A stretch of DNA of 64,000 nucleotides from Bacteroidales bacterium UBA1195 (GTDB taxonomy: Bacteria; Bacteroidota; Bacteroidia; Bacteroidales; WCHB1-69), in NCBI GenBank assembly GCA_002309855.1, contig DBYD01000031.1, forward strand, positions 60,723 to 124,722, in the 5' to 3' direction. Positions 10,502 to 47,731 of this stretch are shown here, one piece after another; position 1 is the stretch's first letter, and each line of letters begins with the position of its first letter. The notes under the pieces are model-generated. The model ran no database searches. It was given only the letters and a program-made list of their open reading frames with translations, and was not told where the DNA came from. The position numbers were made by a program, and so were the translations under genes.

Positions 10502-10600
10502 ATGCCTCGCGAACTTACCATTGACATCCACGGCAAATACGTTGAAGATGCCCTTGCGGAGGTGCGGGATGAAAAAAACAACGCCGAAGGCAATTTTTGA
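10502..10600 (+). pseudogene. Orphan 5' end of an Smr-domain gene
   Basis: MPRELTIDIHGKYVEDALAEVR then diverges and stops after 32 aa. Nt 10511-10569 match 11382-11440 (the 5' end of the intact Smr ORF) with 4 mismatches in 59 nt. Confidence 0.6.
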
Positions 10601-10645
10601 ATATTAAATGCGTTCCATTAATATAGATAAAAAATTGAAGACAAT

Positions 10646-11230: not shown

Positions 11231-11233
11231 GCC

Positions 11234-11612: not shown

Positions 11613-11625
11613 ATTTGTAACCCCT

Positions 11626-12387
11626 ATGAAAATTTCTGTTATAACCGTCACCTACCAGTCGGTGGGGACGCTGGAGGAGGCCATGCGGAGCGTGTTGCGG
11701 CAGAGCTGGCCTGATGTGGAGTACATTGTTGTGGACGGCGGTTCCACGGACGGGACCGTGGAGACAATCCGCCGCATGGAGCCGGAATTCAACGGCAGGC
11801 TGCGCTGGATCAGCGAGCCGGACCACGGCATTTACGACGCCATGAACAAAGGCATCCGCATGGCGGCAGGGGAGGTCGTCGGCATTCTGAACAGCGACGA
11901 TTTCTTCGCCGCTCCGGATGTGCTGGAGCGCGTGGCCGCCGCCTTTGCCTCCGATGCCGCATTGGAGGGCGTTTATGGCGATGTGCGCTATGTGGAGCCT
12001 GAAAACACCGCAAGGACGGTGCGGCATTACTCCTCTGCGGGGTTCACCCGCAAAAAGCTGGTCTACGGCCTTATGCCGGCGCATCCCTCGTTCTATGCCC
12101 GCAAAACCTGCTTTGACCGTTTCGGGTTGTACGACACCCGTTACCGCATCTCCGCCGATTACGACATGTTTGTCCGGCTGATATGGGTGGGAGGCATCCG
12201 CACGCGCTATATGCCATTCGATTTTGTGACAATGCGGAACGGAGGTGCCTCATCATCCGGATTTTCCGCCAGGTGGCAGATAATGCGCGAACACCTTCGG
12301 AGCGCACGGGAGCATGGGATGCCTAGCAGCTTTTTCCTGCAAAGCCTGCGTTATTTCGGAAAAATTGCCGACCTTTTGAAAAAATAG
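11626..12387 (+). CDS. Glycosyltransferase family 2
   Basis: ISVITVTYQS...YIVVDGGSTDGT...GILNSDD is the GT-A/GT2 signature including DxD. 253 aa. Confidence 0.85.
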   Translation: MKISVITVTYQSVGTLEEAMRSVLRQSWPDVEYIVVDGGSTDGTVETIRRMEPEFNGRLRWISEPDHGIYDAMNKGIRMAAGEVVGILNSDDFFAAPDVLERVAAAFASDAALEGVYGDVRYVEPENTARTVRHYSSAGFTRKKLVYGLMPAHPSFYARKTCFDRFGLYDTRYRISADYDMFVRLIWVGGIRTRYMPFDFVTMRNGGASSSGFSARWQIMREHLRSAREHGMPSSFFLQSLRYFGKIADLLKK

Positions 12388-32837: not shown

Positions 32838-33458
32838 ATGAATGCATTTAAACATTTTGTATGGATTGCCGTTGCGGCAATGGTAATGGTTGGTTGCAGC
32901 AGTTCGAAACATGCTGTGGATTCAAAAATCACCAAACAGACCAGTCTTGAAGGTGAAAAGGTGATGGTTGAGACTGCAAAGATGCAGGGGATTGAAATGG
33001 TTGAAGGTCTGAGTGAGGACGGCACCAAAATCAAAAAGGTGCCCTATAAGTGGTTTGCCGGTATCGGTAAGGCCGATGACAAGCAGACCGCCATTGAGAT
33101 GGCCGAACTGGAGGCCAGAGCCACAATCTCCCGTATTATTGAGAATCTTGTGATGGCCTGTGCCGAGCGTGGCAGCCTGGCCAATAACGGTGAGGTGCAG
33201 AAGGCACTTTCCTCGCATTGGCAGCAGGTTAGCCGGAGCATACAGAATGCCTGCGAACCTTTTGGTGAAACTAAGATTGAGTATAGCCAATCGACCAAAA
33301 TGTACACAGTGACCTCCAAGGTGGGCATCCGTGGCGACAAGTTCCAGCAGATGCTCAACAACGCGGGCAATTTCAAGCCAAGCAGTCTTAGCGGCAAAGA
33401 TTTGGAGGATTTCATTGAGGTGAACAGACAGATTATTGAGGCCGCCAAAGGAAACTGA
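32838..33458 (+). CDS. LPP20-like lipoprotein
   Basis: Lipobox (VMVGCSS). WFAGIGKADDKQTAIEMAELEARATISRIIENLV resembles LPP20-family domains. Paralogous to 34497-35072. Confidence 0.6.
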   Translation: MNAFKHFVWIAVAAMVMVGCSSSKHAVDSKITKQTSLEGEKVMVETAKMQGIEMVEGLSEDGTKIKKVPYKWFAGIGKADDKQTAIEMAELEARATISRIIENLVMACAERGSLANNGEVQKALSSHWQQVSRSIQNACEPFGETKIEYSQSTKMYTVTSKVGIRGDKFQQMLNNAGNFKPSSLSGKDLEDFIEVNRQIIEAAKGN

Positions 33459-33510
33459 AAAAGCGAATAATTGAAAGTAAACATTTTGGACACTTCCATT
33501 GCATAAAATC

Positions 33511-34500
33511 ATGAAACATCTTTTTATTGCCTTGTTTCTGGTTGCAAGTGTTGTTGCCACAGCGCAGAATTATCCGTCTGATTGGGCGAAATATACCTCC
33601 GACAGATATTTTCACGATGTGGAGAGCGCATCCGGCAAGCAGGCCGCACTCGAACTGGCTCGCACCAGCCTGGCCCGTCAGGTGCAGGTGCGCGTCAGCG
33701 AGGTGAGCCAGATGAACAAGGATGTGGTCAACGGTCGTTCGACCATTTTCTATAGTTCGAGCAAGACCTTCTTCACCGATGTGGACATGAACTTGGCCGA
33801 GACAAAAAGCTACTACAACGAAGCTGCCGGAAAGTACTATGTGCTTGTTTATATTGACAAGGTGGCGGCCTGCACCTTTTATGAGAACGAGGTTAGGATG
33901 CTTATCAGCAATACGGACAACACTCTTGGCATTGCAGGCAACTATATTGCGACCGGTTTCAAGCAGAAGGCGAAAGCCGAGTTGGAAAAGATGCTGAAGC
34001 AGTTCGACGGGGCAGGCAAGTCCTTTTTCTGGCTCAACGTGTTCGGCTTTGACGAAGTGCAGCTGCACCGGTATCTTACCAAGTTGCAAGATAATGAACA
34101 GACCGCCAAACAGTGGCTTGCCGACTTGGAATACGGCACCACCTATTGCGTGGTATGCGATGCTGACCTTTTCGGCAAGAAGTATCTCAAACTGGCGAAT
34201 GAGGTTAAAGGCGAGCTCTCGGCTTCGGGCTGCAATTTTGTGGACGACCCCTCATTGGCCGATTATGTCATCCGCATCAGTGCCTCTGCCCGAAAGTACA
34301 ATGAATTTCAGGGTGCCTATTTCACTTATGTGGATGCGACGGTTACTGTTGACAAGAGTGCCACCAGCCAGCGTATTTTTGAGGATGAGGTTTCCGAGAA
34401 AGGTTCCCATACAATCAACTACGATGAGGCCGCCCGCGACGGATACAAAAAGATAAGCAAGGCAATTGTTAAAATGTTAAAAGATAATATCAAGTTATGA
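33511..34500 (+). CDS. Secreted protein with LPP20-like N-terminal segment
   Basis: ATG 33511 gives MKHLFIALFLVASVVATAQ; the track start is a TTG. GKQAALELARTSLARQVQVRVSEV resembles the LPP20 helix. Confidence 0.55.
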   Translation: MKHLFIALFLVASVVATAQNYPSDWAKYTSDRYFHDVESASGKQAALELARTSLARQVQVRVSEVSQMNKDVVNGRSTIFYSSSKTFFTDVDMNLAETKSYYNEAAGKYYVLVYIDKVAACTFYENEVRMLISNTDNTLGIAGNYIATGFKQKAKAELEKMLKQFDGAGKSFFWLNVFGFDEVQLHRYLTKLQDNEQTAKQWLADLEYGTTYCVVCDADLFGKKYLKLANEVKGELSASGCNFVDDPSLADYVIRISASARKYNEFQGAYFTYVDATVTVDKSATSQRIFEDEVSEKGSHTINYDEAARDGYKKISKAIVKMLKDNIKL

Positions 34501-35072
34501 AACAGCATGTGATATTTTTTACGGCACTGATGGTGGTAGCCGTATTTGGAGCCAAAGCTCAGGACAAGAAAACCATTACCAAAAAGAATTTGAAACTTCA
34601 GGGTGTGGAAATGGTGGAAACACTCAACGAGGACGGTACGGACATGATAAAACGGCCATATCGCTGGTTTGCAGGTATGGCTGAGGCTGATGTGCAGTCG
34701 GTGGCCGTGGAGATGGCGCAATTGGAGGCCTACGCCGCCATATCGCGAGTGATTGAAAATTTGGTGACCACCCAGGCCGAACGTGGCACCGTAGCTGTGA
34801 ACGGCAATGTGCAGAAGGCACTCAAATCGCATTGGGAACAGATGAGTATGAGTATCCAGAAGGCCTGTGAACCATTCGGTGAAACTGAGGTGAACTATGA
34901 TAGTGAAACAGGCATTTATGAGGTGGTTGCCAAGGTGGGTATCCGTGGTGACCGCTATGTGAAACTGCTGGACGGTGCAAAAAAAGCGCAGCCGGAAGGT
35001 TTGACCGGTGACGACTTGAAGCAGTTCAACGCCGCCAACGAAGCCATTATTGATGCCGCAAAAGGAAACTGA
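34497..35072 (+). CDS. LPP20-like secreted protein (paralogue of 32838-33458)
   Basis: WFAGMAEADVQSVAVEMAQLEAYAAISRVIENLV and a shared C-terminal ...IIDAAKGN. Start overlaps the upstream stop as ATGA. Confidence 0.6.
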   Translation: MKQHVIFFTALMVVAVFGAKAQDKKTITKKNLKLQGVEMVETLNEDGTDMIKRPYRWFAGMAEADVQSVAVEMAQLEAYAAISRVIENLVTTQAERGTVAVNGNVQKALKSHWEQMSMSIQKACEPFGETEVNYDSETGIYEVVAKVGIRGDRYVKLLDGAKKAQPEGLTGDDLKQFNAANEAIIDAAKGN

Positions 35073-35093: not shown

Positions 35094-36332
35094 ATGAAAC
35101 AGATTCTGATAACAGTTGTGCTGGTAATCTCAACAGTGTTTTCACTTTCCGCCCAACAGAACATAAAGAAAGTGGCAATTCTAGAAACCGTTGACAAGGA
35201 GGGCAGCGTGCCGTATGGAATACGCCTGCAGCTGCGTAGCAGCCTTACCTATGCCATTTCAAACACTCCCGGTTATGAAGGTTACGACCGTGTTGACATG
35301 TCTTCGATTATGGGTGAGCACAACTTCCAGCGTACCGGTATGGTGAGTGATGCGCAGATAAAAAAACTCGGTGAGATGACAGGAGCTAACTCCATTCTTG
35401 TGGCGGAGGCCGCAATGTACGATGCCAACCACATCATCATTACTGCGAAGATACTGAGTGTCGTGACTGCTGGAGTGGAGGCTGCCGCACCACCTAAGGT
35501 TTCAAGTATTGATCCGGAATCCATGGAAAAAGCTTGTATTGAATTGGCGAAGAAACTGCTTGGAAAAACCTCCGGTGATGGTTCTTATGCGGTAATGCCT
35601 GGTGGTGGGAACTCTTCCAACCAGCAGGGAGCTTCCATGATAACCATAAGGGCGGGCAATGTGAGTTTTGAGATGGTGAAGGTGGAGTCCGGAAGTTTTG
35701 TCATGGGCTGCACGGGCGAGCAGGGCGGAGACTGCGATGATGATGAGAAACCTTATCACCGCGTGACCATTTCCCAGGACTACTACATCGGGAAGTTTGA
35801 GGTGACGCAGGAGCTGTATGAGGCGGTGATGGGGGTGAACCCGAGCAACTGGAAGGCCTTCGACCGTCCTGTGGAAATCGTGAGCTGGAACGATGCGATG
35901 GAGTTTTGTGCCGAACTGAGCCGCATGACAGGACGTCGCTTCACCCTGCCCACGGAGGCGGAGTGGGAGTATGCCGCCCGTGGCGGCAGGAAGTCCACCA
36001 GCGCCAAATACAGTGGCAGTTCCAGTGTGACCAATGTGGCGTGGTACAATGGAAACAGTGGCAGCCAGACCCATCCGGTGGGTAAGCTCCGTCCCAACGA
36101 GCTGGGCATCTATGACATGAGCGGCAATGTGTGGGAGTGGTGTCTGGATTGGAAAGGAAGTTACAGTAGTGCGAGCCAGACCGACCCTATGGGACCCGGT
36201 TCGGGCTCCTACCGCGTGCTGCGCGGCGGTAGCTGTTACCAAAGCGCGGGGGGCTGCCGTGTTTCGCTCCGGAGCGACTTCCCCCCTGGTAACGCGCTCC
36301 AAAACATCGGATTCCGTGTTGTCCTCCATTAG
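35094..36332 (+). CDS. Lipoprotein paralogue F1: CsgG/LpoB-like N-domain + FGE-sulfatase (SUMF1, C-type-lectin fold) C-domain
   Basis: Signal peptide, then KKVAILETVD...GYEGYDRVDMSSIMGEHNFQRTGMVSDAQIKKLGEMTGANSILV. The FGE block follows: YYIGKFEVTQELY...VSWNDAMEFC...RFTLPTEAEWEYAARGG...GIYDMSGNVWEWC...RVLRGGS...GFRVVLH. Confidence 0.8.
   Translation: MKQILITVVLVISTVFSLSAQQNIKKVAILETVDKEGSVPYGIRLQLRSSLTYAISNTPGYEGYDRVDMSSIMGEHNFQRTGMVSDAQIKKLGEMTGANSILVAEAAMYDANHIIITAKILSVVTAGVEAAAPPKVSSIDPESMEKACIELAKKLLGKTSGDGSYAVMPGGGNSSNQQGASMITIRAGNVSFEMVKVESGSFVMGCTGEQGGDCDDDEKPYHRVTISQDYYIGKFEVTQELYEAVMGVNPSNWKAFDRPVEIVSWNDAMEFCAELSRMTGRRFTLPTEAEWEYAARGGRKSTSAKYSGSSSVTNVAWYNGNSGSQTHPVGKLRPNELGIYDMSGNVWEWCLDWKGSYSSASQTDPMGPGSGSYRVLRGGSCYQSAGGCRVSLRSDFPPGNALQNIGFRVVLH
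36210..36332 (+). other. VR-like hypervariable 3' block of F1 (most divergent copy)
   Basis: Last 41 codons, see the DGR finding. It keeps the conserved skeleton but has non-NNC deviations (TGT, CAA x2, GCG). Confidence 0.5.
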
Positions 36333-36489
36333 TTTGCTACGAAAAATCCATCAGTCATACTAAGCTAAAAAAACGGTTTATGATAGTGAAGCGGAGCGGG
36401 AGCGGAACGGAGTGCAGCGACAGGCGCAGCGGAAACATCATAAACCGCCGGTGGAAAATAAGAATTACAATCAAGCAAATAATAAAATT
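36333..36489 (+). repeat. Conserved intergenic unit, copy 1
   Basis: Post-stop element TTTGCTACGAAAAATCCATCAGTCATACTAA, then the stem CGGTTTATGAT (36374-36384) / ATCATAAACCG (36437-36447) around a 52-nt purine-rich loop. A 37-codon uORF (36380-36493) ends in a TGA that overlaps the F2 GTG start as GTGA. Confidence 0.8.
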
Positions 36490-37743
36490 GTGAAACGATT
36501 ATTGATTTTTTTATTCATGCTGTCTGTTTCAGTGGCTTCTATAGCTCAGAGCAAGCCTAAGAAGGTTGCCGTATGGGAGACCCAGCGCATTGGCGATGAT
36601 ATCTCGTTGTTCAAGGGTACATTGGTGCGCGGTGCCATTGAGGAGGCTGTAGATAATACTCCAGGTTATGTCAAATATGACAGGGCCATGTTCGATGCAA
36701 TTGTAGCTGAGCACAAATTCCAGCGTTCAGGTGCTGTTAAGGATGATGATATGAGGAAAATGGGTGAAATGGCCGGTGTGCAATATGTTATTGTTCCAGA
36801 ATGTGCTATTGAGGACGGGTATTTTGTGCTTAACGTAAGAATGCTTGATGTGGAGTCCGGACAATCGAAAACAGTGCAGGAGATTCCGGCCAATACTGTA
36901 CCTGAAATAAAGGCGGCCTGCACAAAGTTGTCTGCGCGTCTGTTTGGCAATTCGGGTGGTAGTTCTTATGTGCGTTCTGGCGGAGGTGGCAACACCACCA
37001 CGCAGCGCGGCCAGGATTTCACGGAGACAGCTTTCGGCATCAACATGCGGATGGTATATGTGGAGGGCGGCACCTTCACCATGGGCTGTACTGGCGAGCA
37101 GGGCAGCGATTGTGAAGATGACGAGTCTCCCAACCGGCAGACCACTGTCAGTTCATACTACATCGGTATGTTGGAGGTGACACAGAGCCAGTGGGAGAAG
37201 GTGATGGGAACTTCCATTTATCAGCAGCAGTCCAAAGCAGATGCTTCGAAAACCTATGGCACCGGTGCCGACTACCCGATGTATTATGTGAGTTGGGAGG
37301 AGGCGAAGGAGTTTTGCACCCGCCTAAGTCGTCAGACTGGAAGGAACTATACACTGCCCACCGAGGCGGAGTGGGAGTATGCCGCCCGTGGTGGGAAGAA
37401 AAACGAAGGGACGAAGTACAGTGGGGGCTGGAGTGTAGGTGATGTGGCGTGGTATGATGGAAACAGCGGCAGTTCCACGCATCCGTGTGGAACCAAGCGT
37501 CCAAATGCGCTTGGCATCTACGACATGAGCGGCAACGTATGGGAGTGGTGCGAGGACTGGTATGGCAGCAAATACCTGCAGTATGACAATAACAACCCCA
37601 AAGGTGCCAGTTCAGGCTCCTGCCGCGTGTTGCGCGGCGGTAGCTGGAGCTACGGCGCGAGGAACTGCCGTGTTTCGGATCGGATCAACAGCGCTCCTGG
37701 CAACCGGAACGACGACGACGGGTTTCGCGTTGTCCTCCATTAG
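36490..37743 (+). CDS. Lipoprotein paralogue F2: CsgG/LpoB-like N-domain + FGE-sulfatase C-domain
   Basis: GTG 36490 gives VKRLLIFLFMLSVSVASIAQ. The track start at 36412 lies in the intergenic repeat in another copy's frame. The FGE block is near-identical to F5 and F7. Confidence 0.75.
   Translation: MKRLLIFLFMLSVSVASIAQSKPKKVAVWETQRIGDDISLFKGTLVRGAIEEAVDNTPGYVKYDRAMFDAIVAEHKFQRSGAVKDDDMRKMGEMAGVQYVIVPECAIEDGYFVLNVRMLDVESGQSKTVQEIPANTVPEIKAACTKLSARLFGNSGGSSYVRSGGGGNTTTQRGQDFTETAFGINMRMVYVEGGTFTMGCTGEQGSDCEDDESPNRQTTVSSYYIGMLEVTQSQWEKVMGTSIYQQQSKADASKTYGTGADYPMYYVSWEEAKEFCTRLSRQTGRNYTLPTEAEWEYAARGGKKNEGTKYSGGWSVGDVAWYDGNSGSSTHPCGTKRPNALGIYDMSGNVWEWCEDWYGSKYLQYDNNNPKGASSGSCRVLRGGSWSYGARNCRVSDRINSAPGNRNDDDGFRVVLH
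37621..37743 (+). other. VR-like hypervariable 3' block of F2
   Basis: All 15 hypervariable codons are NNC or NNT (TGC, AGC, AGC, TAC, GGC, AAC, GAT, ATC, AAC, AGC, AAC, AAC, GAC, GAC, GAC). Confidence 0.7.
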
Positions 37744-37901
37744 TTTGCTACGAAAAAATCCATCACTCATACTAAGTTAAAAAACGGTTTATGATAATGA
37801 AGCGGAGCGGGAGCGGAACGGAGTGCAGCGACAGGCGCAGCGGAAACATCATAAACCGTCGGCGGAAAATAAGACTTACAATCAAGCAAAATAATAAAAT
37901 T
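37744..37901 (+). repeat. Conserved intergenic unit, copy 2
   Basis: Same architecture as copy 1, with a 12-bp stem. Here the upstream ATG frame reads in-frame into the next gene. Confidence 0.8.
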
Positions 37902-39170
37902 GTGAAACGATTATTGATTTTTGCGGCTTTGATAGTGTGTTCTCTAATCACTTTGGGGCAGAATGTAAAAAAGGTTGCTATGTTGGAAACTCTTAATGGG
38001 GATAAGAGTGTCGGAGATTTGGCATTTGAGCTGAACATGGTACGAGGTGAATTGATTAAAGCTATTTGCCTCCAATCAGGATATAGAGCATTTATGCGTA
38101 CTGATATTGATCAGCTAATGAAAGAGTATGGTTTTCAAAATTCAGGAATGGTGGCCGATGCTCAAAGAAAAAGAATCGGAGAAATGGCAGGTGCCGATTT
38201 TATTTGTGTTTCAAAACTTACAAAGAAACAATCCTTTTTTTATATTGAGGCATACTTGGTTGATATTGTTACTGGTGAATATTCCGTTCCTGCAACGCAA
38301 TATGTGACATTAAGAGGTAATGATTATGCCGAATTATTTGAAAAGTGTAAAACTCTGGCTCAAGAATTGTTGGGTAATGTTGGCCCTTCTGTTACTACGC
38401 CGCCCCGTACTCCTGTAATAACACCTTCCATACCGTCAACTCCTATAGCAGATGGAAACTACAATGTCAATAGAAACTATAATGGATTCTATATTTGCGG
38501 AAATCAGAGGACTGATTACTCTGATGTTGCGGACGCCTTAAAGGGATTGGCTGATGCAGTCAACAAATGGGGAGAACTTCGTACAGGTGCAATACTTGAA
38601 AACGGGAATGGTATAGTTATATATGGTGGTAATGGCTATAAATACATGGGTTTTTCTGCTGATTTTAGTGCAACTTTTTTGGAAAAGTTAAAAAAATGCC
38701 ACGATGAAAAGGAAATCATTAAAGACATTACTGTTAATTCGAAAGGTCATTATGTCATTATTTATGGGAATGATTACTACCGCACCGATGGATTACCAGA
38801 ATCTTTCTTGAAAAAAATAAAAAAAAGCAGTGATGACGATGAAGATGTTATTTATTCTGTTTCCATAGACAATTCTGACAATTGGGCGTTTGTTTCGAAG
38901 AAGTTTTTCTGTGCTTCAAATAATGATGACTATGAATTTATGCGAGAGGCTAAAAATAAGTTTGGTCATATTGAGTCGGTATGTATTACACTTAAGGGAA
39001 TTGTTGTATGTTGCGAAAAAGGAGTATATTTTAGGGGGATACCAAAGAAAGTTGTTGATAAGTTGATAGAGTTTATGGATAAAGGTAAAATCCCCAAAGT
39101 AATTAAGTATACTGATAGTGGAACATGTTTTATTACTGATGGAGAAAAAACGTATGTTTTTTATATGTAA
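37902..39170 (+). CDS. Lipoprotein paralogue F3': CsgG/LpoB-like N-domain + unrelated AT-rich repeat C-domain (no FGE domain)
   Basis: GTG 37902 gives VKRLLIFAALIVCSLITLGQ. The N-domain is homologous to the other paralogues. The C-half has about 5 internal repeats (GIVIYGGNGYKYMG / HYVIIYGNDYYRTDG / NWAFVSKKFFCAS / GIVVCCEKGVYFRG / TCFITDGEKTYVFYM). Confidence 0.7.
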   Translation: MKRLLIFAALIVCSLITLGQNVKKVAMLETLNGDKSVGDLAFELNMVRGELIKAICLQSGYRAFMRTDIDQLMKEYGFQNSGMVADAQRKRIGEMAGADFICVSKLTKKQSFFYIEAYLVDIVTGEYSVPATQYVTLRGNDYAELFEKCKTLAQELLGNVGPSVTTPPRTPVITPSIPSTPIADGNYNVNRNYNGFYICGNQRTDYSDVADALKGLADAVNKWGELRTGAILENGNGIVIYGGNGYKYMGFSADFSATFLEKLKKCHDEKEIIKDITVNSKGHYVIIYGNDYYRTDGLPESFLKKIKKSSDDDEDVIYSVSIDNSDNWAFVSKKFFCASNNDDYEFMREAKNKFGHIESVCITLKGIVVCCEKGVYFRGIPKKVVDKLIEFMDKGKIPKVIKYTDSGTCFITDGEKTYVFYM

Positions 39171-39174
39171 AAAT

Positions 39175-40407
39175 ATGAAAAAATTACTGATTCTTGCAAC
39201 CTTGCTGACACTCTCCTTATGTGCCATGGCTCAGAGCAAGCCTAAAAAGGTTGCTGTATGGGATGCCAAGTGCATTGGAACAGATGACCTGTTGTTCGAG
39301 GCCGATGTGGTTCAAGGTAGCTTGGAAGAGGCTGTGGACAATATGTCCGGTTATGTCAAATACGACAGGGCAATGTTTGATAAAGTCATGAAGGAACACA
39401 ATTTTGAGCGTTCTGGAGCTGTAAATGACAATCAAATCAAGGAAATGGGTGAATATGCGGGTGTGGATTATATCTTTGTGCCTTCTGTGTCCTCAAAATC
39501 TGGATATATTAACATTGTGGTGCGGTGTATTGACATTAAAACAGGTGAGTCTGTGACAAGGCAGCAACTATCCTCGGCTGAACCACCTGAAATTCAAAAG
39601 GCGTGTGTCAAGATTGCTGAACGGATGCTTGGTGGTAATTCCGGTTCTGACCGCATATACACACAGCCCCGTCCTGGTGGCGGAAACTTTTCCAGCCAGC
39701 AGGGAGCTTCCACGATAACCATAAGGGTTGGCAATGTGAGTTTTGACATGGTGAAGGTGGAGGCGGGCAGCTTTATCATGGGTTGCACGGGCGAGCAGGG
39801 TGGAGAGTGCTATTATGACGAGAGCCCTTATCACCGCGTGACCATTTCCCAGGACTACTACATCGGAAAGTTTGAGGTGACGCAGGAACTGTATGAGGCG
39901 GTGATGGGGGTGAACCCGAGCAACTGGAAGGCATTCGACCGTCCTGTGGAAAGGGTGAGCTGGAACGATGCGATGGAGTTTTGTGCCGAGCTGAGCCGCA
40001 TGACAGGCCGCCGCTTCACCCTGCCGACTGAGGCGGAGTGGGAGTATGCCGCCCGTGGCGGCAGAAAGTCCACCAATGCCAAATACAGCGGCAGTGCCAG
40101 TGTGTCCAATGTGGCGTGGTATGATGGGAACAGCGGCAACCAGACCCATCCGGTGGGTAAGCTCCGTCCCAACGAGCTGGGCATCTACGACATGAGCGGC
40201 AATGTATTTGAATGGTGTCTGGACTGGTACGGAAGCTACAGCAGTGCGAGCCAGACCGACCCTATGGGACCCGGTTCGGGCTCCAGCCGCGTGTTGCGTG
40301 GCGGTGGCTGGGGCTACGGCGCGAGGTACTGCCGTGTTTCGAATCGGAACGGCAGCGCTCCTGGCTACCGGTACGGCTACAACGGGTTTCGCGTTGTCCT
40401 CCATTAG
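39175..40407 (+). CDS. Lipoprotein paralogue F4: CsgG/LpoB-like N-domain + FGE-sulfatase C-domain
   Basis: ATG 39175 lies 4 nt after the F3' stop and gives MKKLLILATLLTLSLCAMAQ. The FGE block is about 90% identical in DNA to F1 (by eye). Confidence 0.8.
   Translation: MKKLLILATLLTLSLCAMAQSKPKKVAVWDAKCIGTDDLLFEADVVQGSLEEAVDNMSGYVKYDRAMFDKVMKEHNFERSGAVNDNQIKEMGEYAGVDYIFVPSVSSKSGYINIVVRCIDIKTGESVTRQQLSSAEPPEIQKACVKIAERMLGGNSGSDRIYTQPRPGGGNFSSQQGASTITIRVGNVSFDMVKVEAGSFIMGCTGEQGGECYYDESPYHRVTISQDYYIGKFEVTQELYEAVMGVNPSNWKAFDRPVERVSWNDAMEFCAELSRMTGRRFTLPTEAEWEYAARGGRKSTNAKYSGSASVSNVAWYDGNSGNQTHPVGKLRPNELGIYDMSGNVFEWCLDWYGSYSSASQTDPMGPGSGSSRVLRGGGWGYGARYCRVSNRNGSAPGYRYGYNGFRVVLH
40285..40407 (+). 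other. VR-like hypervariable 3' block of F4
   Basis: Hypervariable codons are AGC, GGC, GGC, TAC, GGC, TAC, AAT, AAC, GGC, AGC, TAC, TAC, GGC, TAC, AAC. Confidence 0.7.
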
Positions 40408-40571
40408 TTTGCTACGAAAAAATCCATCAGTCATACTAAGCTAAAAAAACGGTTTATGATAGTGAAGCGGAGTGGGAGCGGAATGGAGTGCAGCGACAGG
40501 CGCAGCGGAAACATCATTAACCGCCAGGGAAGAAACATTAAAAAGAAAGATAGTAAAAGGAATATAGTGTC
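40408..40571 (+). repeat. Conserved intergenic unit, copy 3
   Basis: Same element and stem, with one stem mismatch. The 39-codon uORF (40456-40575) ends in a TGA that overlaps the F5 ATG as ATGA. Confidence 0.8.
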
Positions 40572-41828
40572 ATGAAGTTAAAACAAATCGTATTCATCCT
40601 GTTGTATGTGTTCTCACTTACAGCGGTGGGTCAGACGAAGAAAGTAGCTGTGTGGGAGACCAAATGCAGTGACAACAGCCTACGACCAATCCAGAAAACA
40701 ATGGTGCGTGGAGGAATGGAGACCTCTGTGGGGAATACACCGGGTTACGAGGTGTTTGACCGTAGTGCGTTTGATGTCATAATGAAGGAACACCATTTTG
40801 AGCGTTCTGGTGCGGTGAGTGAGGCGGAAATAAAGGAATTGGGTAAAATAGCTGGAGTACAGTACATAATAGTGCCGGAGGCAATGACTGATGGCACAGA
40901 TTTCTATATCATTGTGAAGATGCTTGATGTTGAGACGGGCAAGTTCGGAGGTGTTCATCAGGCATTGTGTACTCCTACAGGGTCGGATATCTATAAAGCA
41001 TGCGAAAAATTAGGTGCTGAACTTTTTGGCAGTTCTTACGGTGGTTCAAATACTAATGGCAATCGTTCCAATGGCAACGCCACCACGCAGCGCGGCCAGA
41101 ACTTCACGGAGACAGCCTTCGGCATCAACATGCGGATGGTATATGTGGAGGGCGGCACCTTCACCATGGGCTGTACTGGCGAGCAGGGCAGCGATTGTGA
41201 CGATGACGAGTCTCCCAACCGGCAGACCACTGTCAGTTCATACTACATCGGTATGTTGGAGGTGACACAGAGCCAGTGGGAGAAGGTGATGGGAACTTCC
41301 GTCTATCAGCAGCGGAACAAAGCCAATCCGGAATGGACGATGCGTGGCATCGGTGCCGACTACCCGATGTACTATGTGAGCTGGGAGGAGGCGAAGGAAT
41401 TTTGCGCCCGCCTGAGCCGTCAGACAGGAAGGAACTACACTCTACCGACCGAGGCGGAATGGGAATATGCCGCCCGTGGCGGGAAGAAAAACGAAGGGAC
41501 GAAGTACAGCGGGGGCTGGAGTGCCGATGATGTGGCGTGGTATGATGGCAACAGCGGCAATTCCACGCATCCGTGCGGCACCAAGCGTCCGAACGCGCTT
41601 GGCATCTACGACATGAGCGGCAATGTGTGGGAGTGGTGCGAGGACTGGTATGGCAAGTATTTGCAGTATGACAACAACAATCCCAAAGGTGCCAATGTCG
41701 GCTCCGGCCGCGTGTCGCGTGGCGGTGGCTGGAACAACTGCGCAGGGTACTGCCGTGTTTCGTATCGGAACGGCAGCACTCCTGGCAGCAGGTACGGCAA
41801 CCTCGGGTTTCGCGTTGTCCTCCATTAG
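40572..41828 (+). CDS. Lipoprotein paralogue F5: CsgG/LpoB-like N-domain + FGE-sulfatase C-domain
   Basis: Signal MKLKQIVFILLYVFSLTAVGQ. The N-terminal ~207 aa differ from F6 at only 7 positions. The FGE block is of the F2/F7 type. Confidence 0.8.
   Translation: MKLKQIVFILLYVFSLTAVGQTKKVAVWETKCSDNSLRPIQKTMVRGGMETSVGNTPGYEVFDRSAFDVIMKEHHFERSGAVSEAEIKELGKIAGVQYIIVPEAMTDGTDFYIIVKMLDVETGKFGGVHQALCTPTGSDIYKACEKLGAELFGSSYGGSNTNGNRSNGNATTQRGQNFTETAFGINMRMVYVEGGTFTMGCTGEQGSDCDDDESPNRQTTVSSYYIGMLEVTQSQWEKVMGTSVYQQRNKANPEWTMRGIGADYPMYYVSWEEAKEFCARLSRQTGRNYTLPTEAEWEYAARGGKKNEGTKYSGGWSADDVAWYDGNSGNSTHPCGTKRPNALGIYDMSGNVWEWCEDWYGKYLQYDNNNPKGANVGSGRVSRGGGWNNCAGYCRVSYRNGSTPGSRYGNLGFRVVLH
41706..41828 (+). 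other. VR-like hypervariable 3' block of F5
   Basis: Hypervariable codons are GGC, GGC, AAC, AAC, TGC, TAC, TAT, AAC, GGC, AGC, AGC, TAC, GGC, AAC, CTC. Confidence 0.7.
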
Positions 41829-41992
41829 TTTGCTACGAAAAAATCCATTAGTCATACTAAGCTAAAAAAACGGTTTATGATAGTGAAGCGGAGCGGGAGC
41901 GGAATGGAGTGCAGCGACAGGCGCAGCGGAATCATCATAAACCGCCGGTGGAAGAAATATTAAAAGAAAGATAGTAAAAGGAATATAGTGTC
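41829..41992 (+). repeat. Conserved intergenic unit, copy 4
   Basis: Same element and 11-bp stem. The uORF (41877-41963, 28 codons) stops 30 nt before the F6 ATG. Confidence 0.8.
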
Positions 41993-43345
41993 ATGAATTT
42001 AAAACAAATCGTATTTATCCTTTTGTCAGTGTTCTCACTGACAGCGGTGGGTCAGACGAAGAAAGTTGCCGTGTGGGAGACCAAATGCAGTGACAACAGC
42101 CTACGACCAATCCAGAAAACAATGGTGCGTGGAGGAATGGAGACCTCTGTGGGGAACACACCGGGTTACGAGGTGTTTGACCGTAGTGCGTTTGATGTCA
42201 TAATGAAGGAACACCATTTTGAGCGTTCTGGTGCGGTGAGTGAGGCAGAAATAAAGGAACTTGGTAAAATAGCTGGAGTCCAGTATATAATAGTGCCGGA
42301 GGCAATGACTGATGGTACAGATTTCTATATCATTGTGAAGATGCTTGATGTAGAGACGGGCAAGTTCGGAGGTGTCCATCAGGCATTGTGTACTCCTACA
42401 GGGTCGGATATCTATAAAGCCTGCGAAAAATTAGGTGCTGAACTTTTTGGCAGTTCTTACGGCGTTTCAAATTCTAATGGCAACCGTTCTAATGGCAACG
42501 CCACCACGCAGCGCGGCCAGGACTTCACGGAGACGGCCTTCGGCATCAACATGAAAATGATATATGTTGAGGGCGGCACCTTCACCATGGGCTGCACCGG
42601 CGAGCAGGGCAGCGATTGCTATGATGGCGAGAAACCTGTCCATATGGTAACGCTTTCCAATTATTATATTGGTGAGACGGAGGTGACTGTAAGACAATTC
42701 ATGAAATTCATAACTGAGACAGGGTATCGCACCGATGCTGAAAAGGATGGTGGTGCATGGAGATGGATAAAGGTTGGTGATGAATGGAAATGGAATTATG
42801 TGAACGGATTGAATTGGATGTATGATGCCAATGGGAATGTCAGGAACAGTTCTGAATATGACCATCCTGTGTTGTATGTAAGTTGGAATGATGCCAATGA
42901 GTTCTGCAAATGGTTGAGACAAAAGACCGGAAAAAGTTATCGCCTGCCCACGGAGGCGGAGTGGGAGTATGCGGCACGTGGAGGTAGAAGAAGCAAAGGC
43001 TATAAATTTAGTGGCAGTAACAGTATAAATGATGTGGCGTGGTATGGGAATTTGAATAGTAGTACAACGGCAAATGGGAAAACGCATTCTGTCGGTACAA
43101 AAACTGCCAACGAACTGGGCATCTACGACATGAGCGGCAACGTGTGGGAATGGTGTCAGGATTGGTACGGAAGTTACAGCAGTGCGAGCCAGACCGACCC
43201 TATGGGACCTGCAGCAGGCTCCTACCGCGTGCTGCGCGGCGGTAGCTGGATCTGCATCGCGGGGGACTGCCGTGTTTCGTACCGGAACCGCACCAACCCT
43301 GGTAACCGGATCGACTGCTACGGATTCCGTGTTGTCCTCCATTAG
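41993..43345 (+). CDS. Lipoprotein paralogue F6: CsgG/LpoB-like N-domain + longer, more canonical FGE-sulfatase C-domain
   Basis: The N-half is almost identical to F5. From ~42615 the FGE domain switches to another subtype (KPVHMVTLSNYYIGETEVTVRQF...HPVLYVSWNDANEFCKWL...YRLPTEAEWEYAARGG). Confidence 0.8.
   Translation: MNLKQIVFILLSVFSLTAVGQTKKVAVWETKCSDNSLRPIQKTMVRGGMETSVGNTPGYEVFDRSAFDVIMKEHHFERSGAVSEAEIKELGKIAGVQYIIVPEAMTDGTDFYIIVKMLDVETGKFGGVHQALCTPTGSDIYKACEKLGAELFGSSYGVSNSNGNRSNGNATTQRGQDFTETAFGINMKMIYVEGGTFTMGCTGEQGSDCYDGEKPVHMVTLSNYYIGETEVTVRQFMKFITETGYRTDAEKDGGAWRWIKVGDEWKWNYVNGLNWMYDANGNVRNSSEYDHPVLYVSWNDANEFCKWLRQKTGKSYRLPTEAEWEYAARGGRRSKGYKFSGSNSINDVAWYGNLNSSTTANGKTHSVGTKTANELGIYDMSGNVWEWCQDWYGSYSSASQTDPMGPAAGSYRVLRGGSWICIAGDCRVSYRNRTNPGNRIDCYGFRVVLH
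43223..43345 (+). other. VR-like hypervariable 3' block of F6
   Basis: Hypervariable codons are TAC, AGC, ATC, TGC, ATC, GAC, TAC, AAC, CGC, ACC, AAC, ATC, GAC, TGC, TAC. Confidence 0.7.
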
Positions 43346-43502
43346 TTTGCTACGAAAAAATCCATCATTCATACTAAGCTAAAAAAAACGGTTTATGATA
43401 GTGAAGCGGAGCGGGAGCGGAACGGAGTGCAGCGACAGGCGCAGCGGAAACATCATAAACCGCCGAGGAAGAATAAGACTTACAATCAAGCAAAATAATA
43501 AA
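43346..43502 (+). repeat. Conserved intergenic unit, copy 5
   Basis: Same element and stem. The upstream ATG frame reads in-frame into F7. Confidence 0.8.
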
Positions 43503-44774
43503 ATGGTGAAACGATTATTGATTTTGGCAGCTTTGCTTGCGGTATCGGTTGTGGTATCTGCCCAGGATAAAGTCAAGAAGGTGGCTGTGCTCAAGGTTGT
43601 CGATGAATATGATGCCGTATCGCCGGGCATAAAACTCAACCTGCGGCAGACCCTGACCGTCGCCATCAACGATATGGAAGGCTATGAGGCCTATACCCGT
43701 GTCAATACGTCGGCTATCAGGGATGAACACGCCTTTGAACGATCCGGCTATGTCAGTGACGATGAGATAAAGGAACTCGGACGGATGAACAGTGTTGATT
43801 ATGTGCTGGTGGCCGAGGTCGCTCCATATAGTGATGGTTACGTCACTTTGACCGCTTCCATATACAATGTGGTTACCGGGCGTATCTTCAAGGCATCGGA
43901 GGGCAAAATAACCTCAACAGATCCCACGAAGATGCCGCAATCGGCCAGGGAGGTTGCCCACACGCTTCTCAAGGGACGCCGACAGGGAGAATTGGTGTCG
44001 GGTGGATACGGATCTGCGGGCAACACCACCACGCAGCGCGGCCAGGATTTCACGGAGACAGCTTTCGGCATCAACATGCGGATGGTATATGTGGAGGGCG
44101 GCACCTTCACCATGGGCTGTACAGGTGAGCAGGGTAGTGATTGCTACGATAACGAGTCCCCAAATAGGCAGACCACTGTCAGTTCATACTACATTGGTAT
44201 GTTGGAGGTGACACAGAGCCAATGGGAGAAAGTGATGGGAACTTCCATTTATCAGCAGCAGTCCAAAGCAAATGCTTCGAAAACCTATGACACCGGTGCC
44301 GACTACCCGATGTATGGTGTGAGTTGGAAGGAGGCGAAGGAGTTTTGCACCCGCCTAAGTCGTCAGACAGGAAGGAACTATACACTGCCCACCGAGGCGG
44401 AGTGGGAGTATGCCGCCCGTGGTGGGAAGAAAAACGAAGGGACGAAGTACAGTGGGGGCTGGAGTGTAGGTGATGTGGCGTGGTATGATGGAAACAGCGG
44501 CAGTTCCACGCATCCGTGTGGAACCAAGCGTCCAAATGCGCTTGGCATCTACGACATGAGCGGCAACGTATGGGAGTGGTGCGAGGACTGGTATGGCAGC
44601 AAATACCTGCAGTATGACAATAACAACCCCAAAGGTGCCAGTTCAGGCGGCTGCCGCGTGTTGCGCGGCGGTTGCTGGAACAACAGCGCAAGGGACTGCC
44701 GTGTTTCGAATCGGAGCTACTTCACTCCTGGCAGCCGGTTCAACGGCTACGGGTTTCGCGTTGTCCTCCATTAG
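43503..44774 (+). CDS. Lipoprotein paralogue F7: CsgG/LpoB-like N-domain + FGE-sulfatase C-domain
   Basis: ATG 43503 gives MVKRLLILAALLAVSVVVSAQ. The FGE block is of the F2/F5 type. Confidence 0.8.
   Translation: MVKRLLILAALLAVSVVVSAQDKVKKVAVLKVVDEYDAVSPGIKLNLRQTLTVAINDMEGYEAYTRVNTSAIRDEHAFERSGYVSDDEIKELGRMNSVDYVLVAEVAPYSDGYVTLTASIYNVVTGRIFKASEGKITSTDPTKMPQSAREVAHTLLKGRRQGELVSGGYGSAGNTTTQRGQDFTETAFGINMRMVYVEGGTFTMGCTGEQGSDCYDNESPNRQTTVSSYYIGMLEVTQSQWEKVMGTSIYQQQSKANASKTYDTGADYPMYGVSWKEAKEFCTRLSRQTGRNYTLPTEAEWEYAARGGKKNEGTKYSGGWSVGDVAWYDGNSGSSTHPCGTKRPNALGIYDMSGNVWEWCEDWYGSKYLQYDNNNPKGASSGGCRVLRGGCWNNSARDCRVSNRSYFTPGSRFNGYGFRVVLH
44652..44774 (+). other. VR-like hypervariable 3' block of F7
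   Basis: Hypervariable codons are TGC, TGC, AAC, AAC, AGC, GAC, AAT, AGC, TAC, TTC, AGC, TTC, AAC, GGC, TAC. Confidence 0.7.
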
Positions 44775-44775
44775 T

Positions 44776-44808
44776 TTAGTATGACAGATGGATTTCAGTC
44801 GTAGTAAA
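44776..44808 (-). repeat. Inverted copy of the ~32-nt post-stop element
   Basis: TTAGTATGACAGATGGATTTCAGTCGTAGTAAA aligns with the reverse complement of the element found after F1, F2, F4, F5 and F6 (TTAGTATGACTGATGGATTTTTTCGTAGCAAA). About 29 of 33 positions match with one small indel. A direct-orientation alignment gives only about a third identity. Confidence 0.7.
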
Positions 44809-44997
44809 CAGGTTCGTGTCGGGTTTGGCATTGCCAAACGAAAAGGAGCGGTCGGGAACCGTCTGTATGCCGGTGCTGGTAGCCGTTGCAGGGTCGTTAC
44901 AGAACCGGATTACTGCATCGGCGAAGGCTCCGGTGATGAGATATGTTCCAATCCCACCCCCGCTTCATCCGGCAGGTTTTGATTAAAATAATTCAAT

Positions 44998-46491
44998 ATG
45001 AAACAATTCTTTACATTCATCCTTGCATTTTTGTTCGCCTCCAATGCCTTTGCTCAGGTGAACCGCGACGCGTTTGACCAACAGCGGCAGAAGATGCGCG
45101 AGCAGTATGAGCAGAAGAAAAATCAGATGCAGCGGCAGTATGACGATGCGCGTAAAAAGGCGGAAGCGGAATACGCAGCCTTCCGCAAGAAGGCCAACGA
45201 GGAGTATGCCGAGGCGGTGAAAAAAGCCTGGCAGCAGATGGGTGTCCAGCCTGCCGTGCCGAAACCAAAAGAGCCGGAGCCACCTCGTCCGCCTGCACCT
45301 GTTCCCGACAAGGAACCTACTACCGACCCGCTGCCGCAGGGTGAAGTGGAGCCATTGCCGGAGGTCAAACCTCCAGTGCCTGCGCCGCCTATTCCCGAAC
45401 CGGAGCCTGAGGTGCCAGTAATGCGGTTCAGCCTGTATGGCACCGGCTGCAGCGTTCATGCCGATGCCGGGCAGCTACGTTTCAAGCTGGCATCGGTTGA
45501 TGAAAATGGGGCGGCGGCGGCCTGGCAAACATTGTCGCAGGAGAAATACGACGGGCTGTTGCACGATTGTCTGGCACTGCGTGACCGGCTGCATCTTGGG
45601 GATTGGGGCTATCTATGCCTGCTGCAGTCTGCAACGGAGCAATTGCTTGGCAGTGGCAGCAACGAGGCTGTGCTGCTGCAGATGTACCTGCTGACCCAGT
45701 CCGGTTACCGTGTGCGCCTTGCCAAGGCGGACGGACGTTTTGTCCTGTTGGTGCCTTTCAGCCATACGGTCTATAATTATTCTTATGTGCCCATAGATGG
45801 ATTGAAGCATTATCTGCTCCGTCCCGGTAAGGGCGGCAGCGTGCAGGTCTGCAAAGTGGCTTTTCCACGTGAGCAGGTGGCAAACATCCTGTTGGCGGAA
45901 CTGCCCGCCTTGGAGCATAATATGCAACCTGGGCGCACCTTTTCGGCCAAACGTTTTGGCACGATGCGGGCGGAGGTCTCGGTGGACAAAAGCCTTGTGG
46001 ATTTCATGAACGATTATCCGTTGAGCGGAGCCTGGGAATGCTACGCCCGTACCGGTTTGAGCGAAAACGTAAAGTCAACCCTCTATCCGGCGTTGCGCAG
46101 TCAGATTGAAGGCAAAAGCAAAAAAAAGGCCGCACTCATGCTTCTGGATTTTGTACAGTCAGCCTTTGCCTATGCCACTGATCAGGAGCAGTTCGGCTAC
46201 GAGAGGCCCCTGTTCGGGGATGAGAGCTTCCATTATCCCAAGAACGACTGTGAGGACCGTTCCATCCTCTACAGCATTCTGGTGCGCGACCTTTTGGGGC
46301 TGGATGCGGTGCTTGTGAACTGGCCAGGACATCTGGCCACGGCGGTGGCCTTTCCGGAAGAGGTGGAGGGCGACTATTTCACCATAGACGGCCGCCGTTA
46401 TACGGTGTGCGACCCAACCTATATCGGTGCCTCAATTGGGGAGACTATGCCGCAGTTCAAGAAGGTGGAGGCCAAACTGATAAAGTTATGA
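44998..46491 (+). CDS. Secreted protein: coiled coil + Pro-rich linker + transglutaminase-like (papain-fold) C-domain
   Basis: Signal MKQFFTFILAFLFASNAFAQ, a K/E/Q-rich helix and a PxP-rich stretch. A candidate Cys-His-Asp triad is present (NDCEDRSILY...WPGHLATAV...VCDPT). Confidence 0.6.
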   Translation: MKQFFTFILAFLFASNAFAQVNRDAFDQQRQKMREQYEQKKNQMQRQYDDARKKAEAEYAAFRKKANEEYAEAVKKAWQQMGVQPAVPKPKEPEPPRPPAPVPDKEPTTDPLPQGEVEPLPEVKPPVPAPPIPEPEPEVPVMRFSLYGTGCSVHADAGQLRFKLASVDENGAAAAWQTLSQEKYDGLLHDCLALRDRLHLGDWGYLCLLQSATEQLLGSGSNEAVLLQMYLLTQSGYRVRLAKADGRFVLLVPFSHTVYNYSYVPIDGLKHYLLRPGKGGSVQVCKVAFPREQVANILLAELPALEHNMQPGRTFSAKRFGTMRAEVSVDKSLVDFMNDYPLSGAWECYARTGLSENVKSTLYPALRSQIEGKSKKKAALMLLDFVQSAFAYATDQEQFGYERPLFGDESFHYPKNDCEDRSILYSILVRDLLGLDAVLVNWPGHLATAVAFPEEVEGDYFTIDGRRYTVCDPTYIGASIGETMPQFKKVEAKLIKL

Positions 46492-47201
46492 GAAAAGAAA
46501 TAATGGTTTTGGCATTGGTTCCCTTTCTGTTGGTGGCGGGTTGTCATCGCCGCGACAAAAAGGATGTTCGCCCGGAGTCTGTTCCGCCGTGTGAGGAGGT
46601 GACGGAACATAAGGACACTGTATCGGTGGAGGCGGATTCATTGGTGAAAACTTCAAAAAAATTAACAGTTTCCGACCTCTACCAGTTGCAGCTGGACAGT
46701 GCGGAAGTCACCAACCTGCGTCTTATGGGACGCAAACAGCGTGTCATTTACCGTTCCAGGCAGCTTTGGGGCAAATGGCAGCGTGGCAGCGAACATGTTG
46801 TTTTCCGGAACGACAGCACCGGTCTGATGTGGGATTTCTCCGATGATGTTTCCCGCGAGGAGGCGCAGCACTTCACTTGGAGCATGGACAGCAATATGCT
46901 GCTGCTTGTTTTCAGAATGGAACGGGGAGCGTTGGTGCCGAAGCTGTATCTCGTCACCTTTGCCGATGATGAGAGCCTGGCCTATAGCGATGCCTATGGG
47001 AATGCCTTCCTGTGGGATAGGGACACAACTGTCCGGGTGGCCTTTGCAGACGGTTTCTTATCCAAAAAAGATTCATTATCTCCTATAGTGTCCGCGCATG
47101 GAAAGCACCAGGACAAGTACCAAATTATCATGAATTTGGTATATAATCCGATCTTTTCTGTTGATTCTCCGGGACCAGCAGCCTGCGAGATCTCCTACTA
47201 A
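46488..47201 (+). CDS. Hypothetical lipoprotein
   Basis: ATG 46488 overlaps the upstream stop as ATGA and gives MRKEIMVLALVPFLLVAGC (lipobox). Its last 126 nt overlap the convergent YoeB gene, so the 3' end may be altered. Confidence 0.55.
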   Translation: MRKEIMVLALVPFLLVAGCHRRDKKDVRPESVPPCEEVTEHKDTVSVEADSLVKTSKKLTVSDLYQLQLDSAEVTNLRLMGRKQRVIYRSRQLWGKWQRGSEHVVFRNDSTGLMWDFSDDVSREEAQHFTWSMDSNMLLLVFRMERGALVPKLYLVTFADDESLAYSDAYGNAFLWDRDTTVRVAFADGFLSKKDSLSPIVSAHGKHQDKYQIIMNLVYNPIFSVDSPGPAACEISY

Positions 47202-47345
47202 TTGCTCCGGTTTCCCAGTGCCTGTGCGCGGGTGCAAGGCCATCTCTTCAAGCAGCCTCTGTATTTTCCTTTTTGTGGCGGGATCTCCGTTTTCCTTCCA
47301 CCATTCAATGTCCTTTTGGGCATCAGGGGTGTATGCTATTTCCAT
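47076..47345 (-). CDS. Txe/YoeB-family type II toxin
   Basis: KIQRLLEEM...GTGKPEQLVGDLAGCWSRRINRKDRIIYQI...MRGHY is the YoeB/Txe pattern. 89 aa. Confidence 0.8.
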   Translation of the reverse strand: MEIAYTPDAQKDIEWWKENGDPATKRKIQRLLEEMALHPRTGTGKPEQLVGDLAGCWSRRINRKDRIIYQIHDNLVLVLVLSMRGHYRR

Positions 47346-47539
47346 AAGTCAGCGGTTCCAATGATTTTGTAGTCGCCTTTTTGAAAAGCCTCCTGTCCTC
47401 TTTTGATTTTGCATACCATTTCGGGGTCGTAGCTTTCATTTTCCGCCACTTCCCTTACATCTTCAAATTTAAGCAAGGCTGAAATGAGTGCCTTTATCGC
47501 TTTGTTTCGTCCGTCATATTCTATGGTTATCGTTTCCAT
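47336..47539 (-). CDS. Cognate antitoxin (small, DUF2683-like)
   Basis: 67 aa from METITIEYDGRNKAIKALI. It overlaps the toxin start by 10 nt. The longer track ORF adds 22 unlikely codons. Confidence 0.6.
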   Translation of the reverse strand: METITIEYDGRNKAIKALISALLKFEDVREVAENESYDPEMVCKIKRGQEAFQKGDYKIIGTADLWK

Positions 47540-47731
47540 GATAGTCTGTTTTTTTCCTTCAAAAACCAAAAAGTAATTGATTTGCAAAAATAGCCTTTTT
47601 TCCAATACGCATCATTAAAAAGTACATGAAAAAAAAGATTGCTGCAAAATAAAAGTTATTCGGTTTTCGCGACGGTTCTGTATTGATTTTTCAAGTACTT
47701 TTGCAACTTTGTTTTTGTGTAGAGGAAAAAC

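Follow-up and report, generated by a model that had tools for sequence, protein, structure and literature searches.

A stop-codon-abutting mirror element and a long-range stem as a candidate variant of the target-recognition flank of HRDC-type diversity-generating retroelements, in a Bacteroidales gene array without its reverse transcriptase

The window analyzed here, a 64,000-nt stretch from Bacteroidales bacterium UBA1195 (contig DBYD01000031.1, positions 60,723 to 124,722), carries an array of genes ending in variable repeats (VRs) of the kind associated with diversity-generating retroelements (DGRs), and five of these genes are followed by a highly conserved unit. We found that the unit contains two elements, namely X, a 35-nt segment abutting the stop codon, and HP2, an 11-bp long-range stem with a conserved interior. 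In related loci, both elements lie behind VRs, the HP2 stem shows compensatory base changes, and X is complementary to and co-varies with a hairpin, X', that follows the template repeat (TR) of complete DGRs. The unit is best classed as a new variant of the flank by which DGRs recognize their targets, here in an array without its reverse transcriptase (RT). We consider it probable (roughly 0.62) that the unit is a cis-acting 3' flank that makes the gene end a target of an HRDC-type Bacteroidales DGR, a role that an earlier sequence-only reading of this DNA had listed among several and that the comparison with complete DGR loci bears out.

The array contains six genes with an FGE-sulfatase domain (PF03781, E = 1e-47 to 1e-63), all on the + strand: F1 (35094-36332), F2 (36490-37743), F4 (39175-40407), F5 (40572-41828), F6 (41993-43345) and F7 (43503-44774). 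DGR-like variation, with the codon pattern typical of VRs, was found within the last ~125 nt of each gene, and the VRs were placed at 36208-36332, 37619-37743, 40283-40407, 41704-41828, 43221-43345 and 44650-44774, respectively. The last 24 nt of the F1 VR form a constant segment resembling an initiation of mutagenic homing (IMH) site. The variable columns of the window VRs coincide with AAC codons of related TRs. The VR of F7 is the only one without a unit behind it.

Inspection of 36000-44000, repeat finding and alignment of the six gene ends located the five units directly 3' of the stop codons ending at 36332, 37743, 40407, 41828 and 43345, in agreement with the sequence-only reading. Across the whole 64 kb, a 34-nt post-stop pattern matched four copies at no more than three mismatches, compared with 0 expected by chance; the post-stop element of copy 1 is one A shorter than the pattern and was recovered in the alignment. 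The 11-nt arm CGGTTTATGAT and its complement formed five pairs in the window, and four of the five were perfect, as had been claimed. No further copies were found in the 64 kb with the post-stop pattern, the 11-nt arm or an HP2 covariance model. X occupies 36332-36366 in copy 1, where it starts with the G of TAG, and 37743-37778, 40407-40442, 41828-41863 and 43345-43380 in copies 2 to 5. HP2 lies at 36374-36447 in copy 1, where the stem pairs 36374-36384 with 36437-36447 and encloses 52 conserved nt that are rich in purines, and at 37785-37858, 40450-40523, 41871-41944 and 43389-43462 in the other copies. The only imperfect stem is that of copy 3, in which the 3' arm (40513-40523, ATCATTAACCG) carries one T.T mismatch.

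The conserved entity was found to run from the last 24 nt of the open reading frame to the 3' stem arm, and within the unit the conserved core is confined to the first ~115 nt. Pairwise identity among the five copies was 94-97% over X, spacer and HP2 and 87.5-100% over the last 24 nt of the reading frame, compared with 63-92% in the FGE core, 54-92% in the tails and 55-95% in the next gene. The whole 157-164 nt, originally described as the conserved unit, was thus not conserved as such. The two tail variants reported earlier are real and are set by the type of the downstream gene: variant 1 precedes genes whose products begin MKRLLI... (36448-36489 before F2, 37859-37901 before F3' and 43463-43502 before F7), and variant 2 precedes those beginning MK/NLKQIVF... 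(40524-40571 before F5 and 41945-41992 before F6). The tail is the leader of the next paralogue and lies outside the conserved module.

To place the module in its wider context, we used 140 loci (~1.7 Mb of sequence, identified below by L-numbers); a protein search and exact-protein look-ups yielded among them loci that share the flanking genes of the window. A protein scan with F5 gave only distant relatives among the matches listed, in which common FGE motifs predominated. In the loci with shared flanks, the three genes upstream of the array (up3, up2 and up1) were 63-76% identical to their counterparts at the amino acid level and the downstream gene dn1 was 45-67% identical, and because these genes are common to the loci, we regard the loci as orthologous. 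Complete DGRs were present in L089, L105 and L138, each with RVT_1 and HRDC genes and each in the order FGE(VR)-X-HP2-HRDC-RT-TR-X'-Sp, in which the TR is followed by X' and then by a conserved structured region. The L089 RT contains the motifs IGNLTSQ and YMDD, the former of a type that we take to be a DGR signature. The mismatches between TR and VR in L089 fell at TR adenines in 17 of 17 and 20 of 20 cases, with 0 elsewhere, and L105 showed 12 adenine mismatches and one non-adenine mismatch. X and HP2 were found behind every VR of the window-type family in the related loci, even where the next gene encodes an HRDC or MORN-repeat protein, and the module therefore belongs to the VR and not to the next paralogue. 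Over the ~1.7 Mb, the covariance model likewise detected HP2 only directly behind FGE/VR genes, including a weak match behind the L001 VR.

VR and TR are identical through CATTAG, which includes the stop codon, and then diverge as X and X'. X was 85-94% identical to the reverse complement of X', compared with ~60-70% for X' in the direct orientation. When X and X' from five genomes were combined in all 120 possible assignments, the cognate assignment ranked first both by duplex energy and by alignment score. Lineage-specific changes were common to the two elements of a genome: X and X' of L138 both carry CATATTAAG and TCYGTCC, those of L105 both carry TCCTRCTAAG, those of L089 both have a longer loop, and those of the window both carry GTCAT. 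As RNA, X' formed a hairpin in five of five genomes (-5.7 to -12.0 kcal/mol), whereas sense-strand X reached only 0 to -4.4 kcal/mol; the post-stop element is therefore not a hairpin itself but complements one and is unstructured. The C that ends X' can pair with the stop-codon G, and opening the TR-X' fold-back at this point reproduces the VR-X junction to the base. The difference between IMH and the donor-side IMH* known from other DGRs is thus present in a variant form, as mirror images beyond the stop codon. We also found the same inverted relation in a distant DGR, that of L004 (z = 5.6). In this locus, a distant metagenome-assembled genome, the VR (10552-10677) and the TR (10933-11058) are 255 nt apart within 10552-11180; the 24 nt directly 3' of the TR recur in reverse complement at nt 12-36 behind the VR, and another long-range stem, CAGCAG/CTGCTG, comes next. 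In the 17 kb of L004, we found no RT of the L089/L138 type.

The stem of HP2 is conserved in pairing. In an alignment of nine distinct sequences, 96% of cells were paired, and compensatory changes were present in four of the 11 pairs (UA/GC, AU/CG/GC, UA/CG and GC/UA/CG). The observed covariation score was reached by 0 of 500 shuffles and by no slid register, and a model-based alignment that included more degenerate copies gave a similar picture. Covariation in homologous arrays, which had been named beforehand as a check on the stem, was thus found. The interior had been called purine-only; this proved too strong, as 39 of its 52 nt in the window are purines, but the three GGAG motifs are present and there is no pyrimidine-pyrimidine step. 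In homologues, the interior is 65-76% purine, with a positive GC skew in all, and its sequence-conserved blocks are AGCGNAGC, GAGTG and AGCGGAA. A duplexfold comparison of the interior with the whole DGR operon was uninformative; 7 nt of complementarity to the constant 5' portion of the VR lay within chance. An integron attC site was considered and ruled out, as the arms depart from GTTRRRY/RYYYAAC, there is no integrase in the vicinity, and single genes can also be followed by the element.

Other VR families in related arrays have long-range stems of their own at the same position. These were observed in L093 (after 9851; GGGGATTT/AAATCCCC), in L095 (after 11272; GCGCAGGAT/ATCCTGCGC) and in L137 (after 3770), behind VR genes whose products end in ...VLVP or ...VLIP. 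The stems are unrelated in sequence and have G-rich interiors, and some contain the motif AGCGGAGC or GAGGGACGA. A long-range stem behind the VR may be a general architecture in these arrays.

The window itself lacks the retroelement. No TR was found in the 64 kb, and tblastn with the RT and HRDC proteins of L089 and L138 as queries gave nothing in the window but an overlap with the TR. Since the HRDC gene, RT and TR are missing, the five units are either what remains of a DGR that was lost recently or are served by an element encoded elsewhere. Behind the F7 stop codon (44774), where there is no unit, we found an inverted post-stop element (a minus-strand match, 82% over 39 nt) and ~100 nt of other conserved sequence. 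The sequence-only reading had mentioned neither the absence of RT and TR nor this inverted element. Homology to the sequence behind the TR in complete DGRs extended over 44775-44913 (nhmmer E = 4e-40, with a consensus fold): 44775-44809 (+ strand) is an X' hairpin fused directly to the F7 stop codon, with an RNA fold of -12 kcal/mol and of the type that follows the TR in complete DGRs, and 44810-44913 (+ strand) is the post-TR structured region, the Sp-like part of the DGR RNA, homologous to 9842-9948 of L089 and to L105, L094 and L138. A VR is fused to post-TR sequence likewise in L094 (after 12770) and L108 (after 959). Because the F7 VR is joined to X' and the post-TR region while HRDC-RT-TR is missing, the simplest origin of the F7 junction would be a deletion by recombination between VR and TR, within their identical last ~24 nt, that removed X-HP2-HRDC-RT. 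F7 was also considered as the coding template for the other VRs and was rejected, as these have adenines where F7 has different bases. A second, independent route of DGR loss is seen in L083 (10125-10180), where a single FGE gene without RT is followed by the unit and then by what is left of the start of the HRDC gene, 17 codons in all (MQYKIFTVPIIGDNEAT).

These observations can be read against what is known of DGR targeting. The target of the Bordetella phage DGR requires the IMH together with a downstream stem-loop (PMC3240598), and the canonical hairpin has a GC-rich stem of 7-10 bp and a 4-nt GRNA loop, 4-34 bp downstream of the VR (Guo 2011, PMC3240598). In this DGR, the spacer RNA folds back to prime cDNA synthesis and remains attached to the product; the primer RNA forms a better duplex with IMH than with IMH*, a difference proposed to determine directionality (PMC5703328). 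According to Wu et al. (2018, PMC5758913), IMH is identical to IMH* in some DGRs, in which the discrimination must lie downstream, and a GC-rich inverted repeat accompanies only 34% of DGRs. The way in which the cDNA locates and enters the target is, by a recent account, still incompletely understood (PMC12875486).

The mirror relation suggests that an RNA, X', directs the mutated DNA copy towards the target, and a mechanism can be proposed from six genomes. After the model of Naorem et al. (2017), X' would fold back and prime reverse transcription of the TR. The product strand, 5'-X'(RNA)-cDNA-3', would then be the gapless complement of the sense strand 5'-VR-X-3', with the RNA-cDNA junction predicted at the 3' end of X', at ...GUAGUAAAC/A. 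X may thus replace the IMH as the docking site of the primer-RNA/cDNA chimera, anchoring the cDNA at the VR and setting the direction of transfer, and the TR, having X' behind it, would not be a target. HP2 could be an accessory structured element in the role of the canonical target stem-loop, which either holds the target open or binds a DGR protein. If the source genome has a TR, its sequence would be expected to be close to GGTAGCTGGAACAACAACGCAAGGAACTGCCGTGTTTCGAATCGGAACAACAAC. DGR editing is reportedly favored when lagging-strand synthesis uses the cDNA-complementary strand as its template, and a stem-loop may prolong the open state (PMC12875486). The array is co-oriented and its + strand GC skew is positive, which would place it in the favored orientation; as most genes share this orientation, the agreement is only consistent with the model.

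Upon comparison with the target of the BPP-1 DGR (Guo et al. 2011, PMC3240598), we found the overall arrangement to be similar but not identical. In both systems, a cis element lies immediately 3' of a VR that ends a C-type-lectin-fold gene, beyond the region copied from the TR, and includes an inverted repeat in which pairing and not sequence is conserved. In contrast to BPP-1, IMH equals IMH* here and the discriminating element comes after the stop codon; the stem is AT-rich (11 bp, 4/11 G+C), encloses ~52 conserved nt in place of the GRNA tetraloop, and begins 41 nt 3' of the VR, compared with a reported range of 4-34 bp. The Naorem et al. model (PMC5703328) shares with our proposal a fold-back spacer primer that is joined to the cDNA, pairs better with the target than with the donor and sets direction. 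It differs in that the partner here is a full 35-nt mirror of the hairpin and not a few extra IMH matches, in that the support is cross-species co-variation instead of mutagenesis, and in that the accessory protein is HRDC and not Avd. Pairing of a retroelement RNA with the DNA target next to the site of cDNA entry also recalls the exon- and intron-binding sites (EBS/IBS) of group II introns. This is an analogy and not membership, as there is no intron, ribozyme or reverse splicing here, and the proposed guide is a primer hairpin held covalently on the cDNA. Among known DGRs, the orthologous loci resemble the HRDC DGRs of architecture C of Wu et al. 2018 (PMC5758913; for example, Treponema denticola) in carrying HRDC, RT and TR with FGE/CLec targets, several per element; the order in our complete loci is target-HRDC-RT-TR, and the window itself lacks HRDC, RT and TR. 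A term search of passages of that survey gave no mention of X, X' or HP2 elements.

A stricter version of this proposal is possible, although we hold it only tentatively. Retrohoming would be strictly RNA-guided: X' would stay on the cDNA and unfold onto the 35-nt X, the presence of X or X' alone would decide between recipient and donor, and HP2, as a second and hitherto undescribed structured element, would recruit the HRDC protein or keep the site open. If this were true, targets could be reprogrammed by placing X and HP2 behind a gene.

Several points weigh against the target-flank interpretation. Priming from X' and the pairing of X' with X in DNA are deduced from sequence comparison. The co-variation of X and X' rests on five genomes, and occasional copying or gene conversion could yield it without selection for pairing. 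The inverted relation is absent from the DGRs of L001 and L024, and the X/X' rule is therefore clade-specific. HP2 differs from the canonical hairpin in its 11 bp, 4/11 G+C content, 52-nt interior and start 41 nt after the stop codon; its interior is conserved in sequence, and HP2 and the post-TR region proved neither significantly similar nor complementary. With RT and TR both missing from the window, the five copies may now do nothing. Additionally, the VR proteins P0065 and P0032 were identical across many contigs, with no sign of current diversification in those populations. L081 and L082 represent the window strain itself (0-1 SNP, or single-nucleotide polymorphism, in 10 kb) and were uninformative on present variation in the VRs.

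The strongest competitor, which we nevertheless consider unlikely, is that the module acts at the RNA level as a 3' untranslated or intercistronic element (a terminator, insulator, exonuclease block or processing site), that it accompanies VR genes for the sake of expression, and that its complementarity to X' is incidental or reflects regulatory antisense. The HP2 covariation fits RNA as well as single-stranded DNA, the stems contain a few U.G cells, and X and X' could pair as two RNAs; moreover, HP2 in the ancestral arrangement precedes the HRDC start codon by 13-21 nt, a position suited to insulating or regulating the DGR operon. An intrinsic terminator does not fit, however, since HP2 is followed on the + strand by CCGGTGGAAAA, with no T-run, and has a 52-nt interior; a T7 run follows HP2 on the - strand only, where no gene is read. 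On reading X and the tails, we saw no Bacteroidetes promoter of the form TAnnTTTG. Rfam 15 gave no gathering-score match over the whole window and none even at E <= 1 over 36200-45100. HP2 is truncated in some loci that lack RT (L095 and L137), and it is therefore tied to the DGR rather than to gene expression. An RNA-level role also leaves unexplained the seamless junction of X with the stop codon, which mirrors TR-X', and the lost folding of X.

X might instead be a by-product, either a scar of the primer hairpin left by past retrohoming or one of a pair of inverted terminal repeats, X and X', that bound HP2-HRDC-RT-TR and are kept alike by recombination. In L089, L105 and L138, X and X' are indeed inverted repeats flanking the cassette, and copying would likewise make cognate pairs the most alike. 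Nevertheless, we judge this explanation improbable. The L089 VRs and TR show 0 non-adenine mismatches in 125 nt, but several mismatches as well as indels separate X from the reverse complement of X', and X must therefore lie outside the copied tract and is not refreshed with each event. X is also present behind VRs with no adjoining cassette (the second L089 VR and the five window copies), the five window copies are kept at 94-97% identity, and there is no transposase or recombinase in these loci.

The genes are tandem paralogues with long common stretches and the copies are very alike, which would be expected if the unit were a residue of tandem duplication or gene conversion, or a generic repeat of the repetitive extragenic palindromic (REP) or miniature inverted-repeat transposable element type, with no function of its own. 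This is highly improbable, as X and HP2 are far better conserved than both flanks and are present behind single-copy orthologues in other species, with compensatory changes in the stem. A generic REP-like element had been named as the outcome that would undermine the earlier account, and it did not materialize: in the window and the 140 loci, copies occur only behind VR genes, and they are absent from the remaining window and from unrelated sites in the 1.7 Mb of related loci. Exact searches revealed no dispersed copies, whether of the loop 24-mer in metagenomes or of the stem pair in viral contigs. Exact DNA searches of viral contigs with the X'-Sp and VR-X patterns gave nothing, and BLAST against a phage collection gave only an unrelated 66-nt match.

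The sequence-only reading had also proposed a translational-coupling or attenuator leader, in which the stem sequesters the ATG of a conserved 24-codon upstream open reading frame. The ATG is present in the 5' arm, the first ~24 codons are common to the five copies, the small-frame stop overlaps the next start in two copies and the frame is fused to the next gene in two others, as described; the frame as a whole is not conserved, with five different endings in the five copies (37 codons, fused, 39, 28 and fused). We consider this role scarcely credible, as neither start codon nor frame is conserved across homologues: the stem ATG is missing in L089 (CGGGTTCTCAT), in L083, L089 and L105 small indels (1-2 nt) disrupt the frame, the module precedes unrelated genes (HRDC, MORN and dn1) in other genomes, and the peptide appears conserved because HP2 is conserved at the nucleotide level.

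If the unit is a target flank, this family amounts to a natural experiment, in which the donor matches the recipient as far as the stop codon and beyond it becomes the mirror image, with the mirror pair co-varying between species. The mirror pair of X and X' would provide independent comparative support for the pairing of a cDNA-linked primer RNA with the target, and HP2 would be a non-canonical target stem-loop relevant to the two-thirds of DGRs that lack the GC-rich hairpin (PMC5758913). The F7 junction would illustrate a route of DGR cassette decay, in which VR x TR deletion leaves orphan arrays of VR genes.

The analysis also flagged what looks like a recurrent annotation error, the assignment of gene starts to the ATG within the stem. 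Protein P0001 (459 aa, NCBI source) and the open reading frame 37791-39170 begin at the ATG in the HP2 5' arm and are likely over-extended at the N-terminus (43395-43502 and 37791-37901, respectively); translation probably begins at 43503 and 37902 instead, immediately ahead of the signal peptide MKRLLI.... The latter gene, F3' (37902-39170), has the same N-terminal lipoprotein-like domain as its neighbors and an unrelated C-terminal half with no Pfam match and no VR. It has no unit behind it, and F4 starts 5 nt downstream.

Three small secreted or lipoprotein-like genes, two of them paralogous and one LPP20-like, lie upstream of the array (32838-35072), and a gene for a 497-aa protein lies downstream (44998-46491). 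Because these genes flank the FGE/DGR array in every related locus, with 45-76% identity, they suggest a conserved surface-protein operon with an embedded DGR. In L105 (- strand), the segment RT-TR-X'-Sp-425-aa gene occurs twice, ~8.2 kb apart and with identical TRs, which reflects either a tandem duplication or an assembly artefact. Positions 1-12000 of the window have a G+C content of ~0.40 compared with ~0.52 in the remaining window and may be a foreign island. Just 3' of the array, on the - strand (47076-47605), the window encodes a ParE/YoeB-like toxin and a DUF2683 partner, according to Pfam marks on the identical contig L081.

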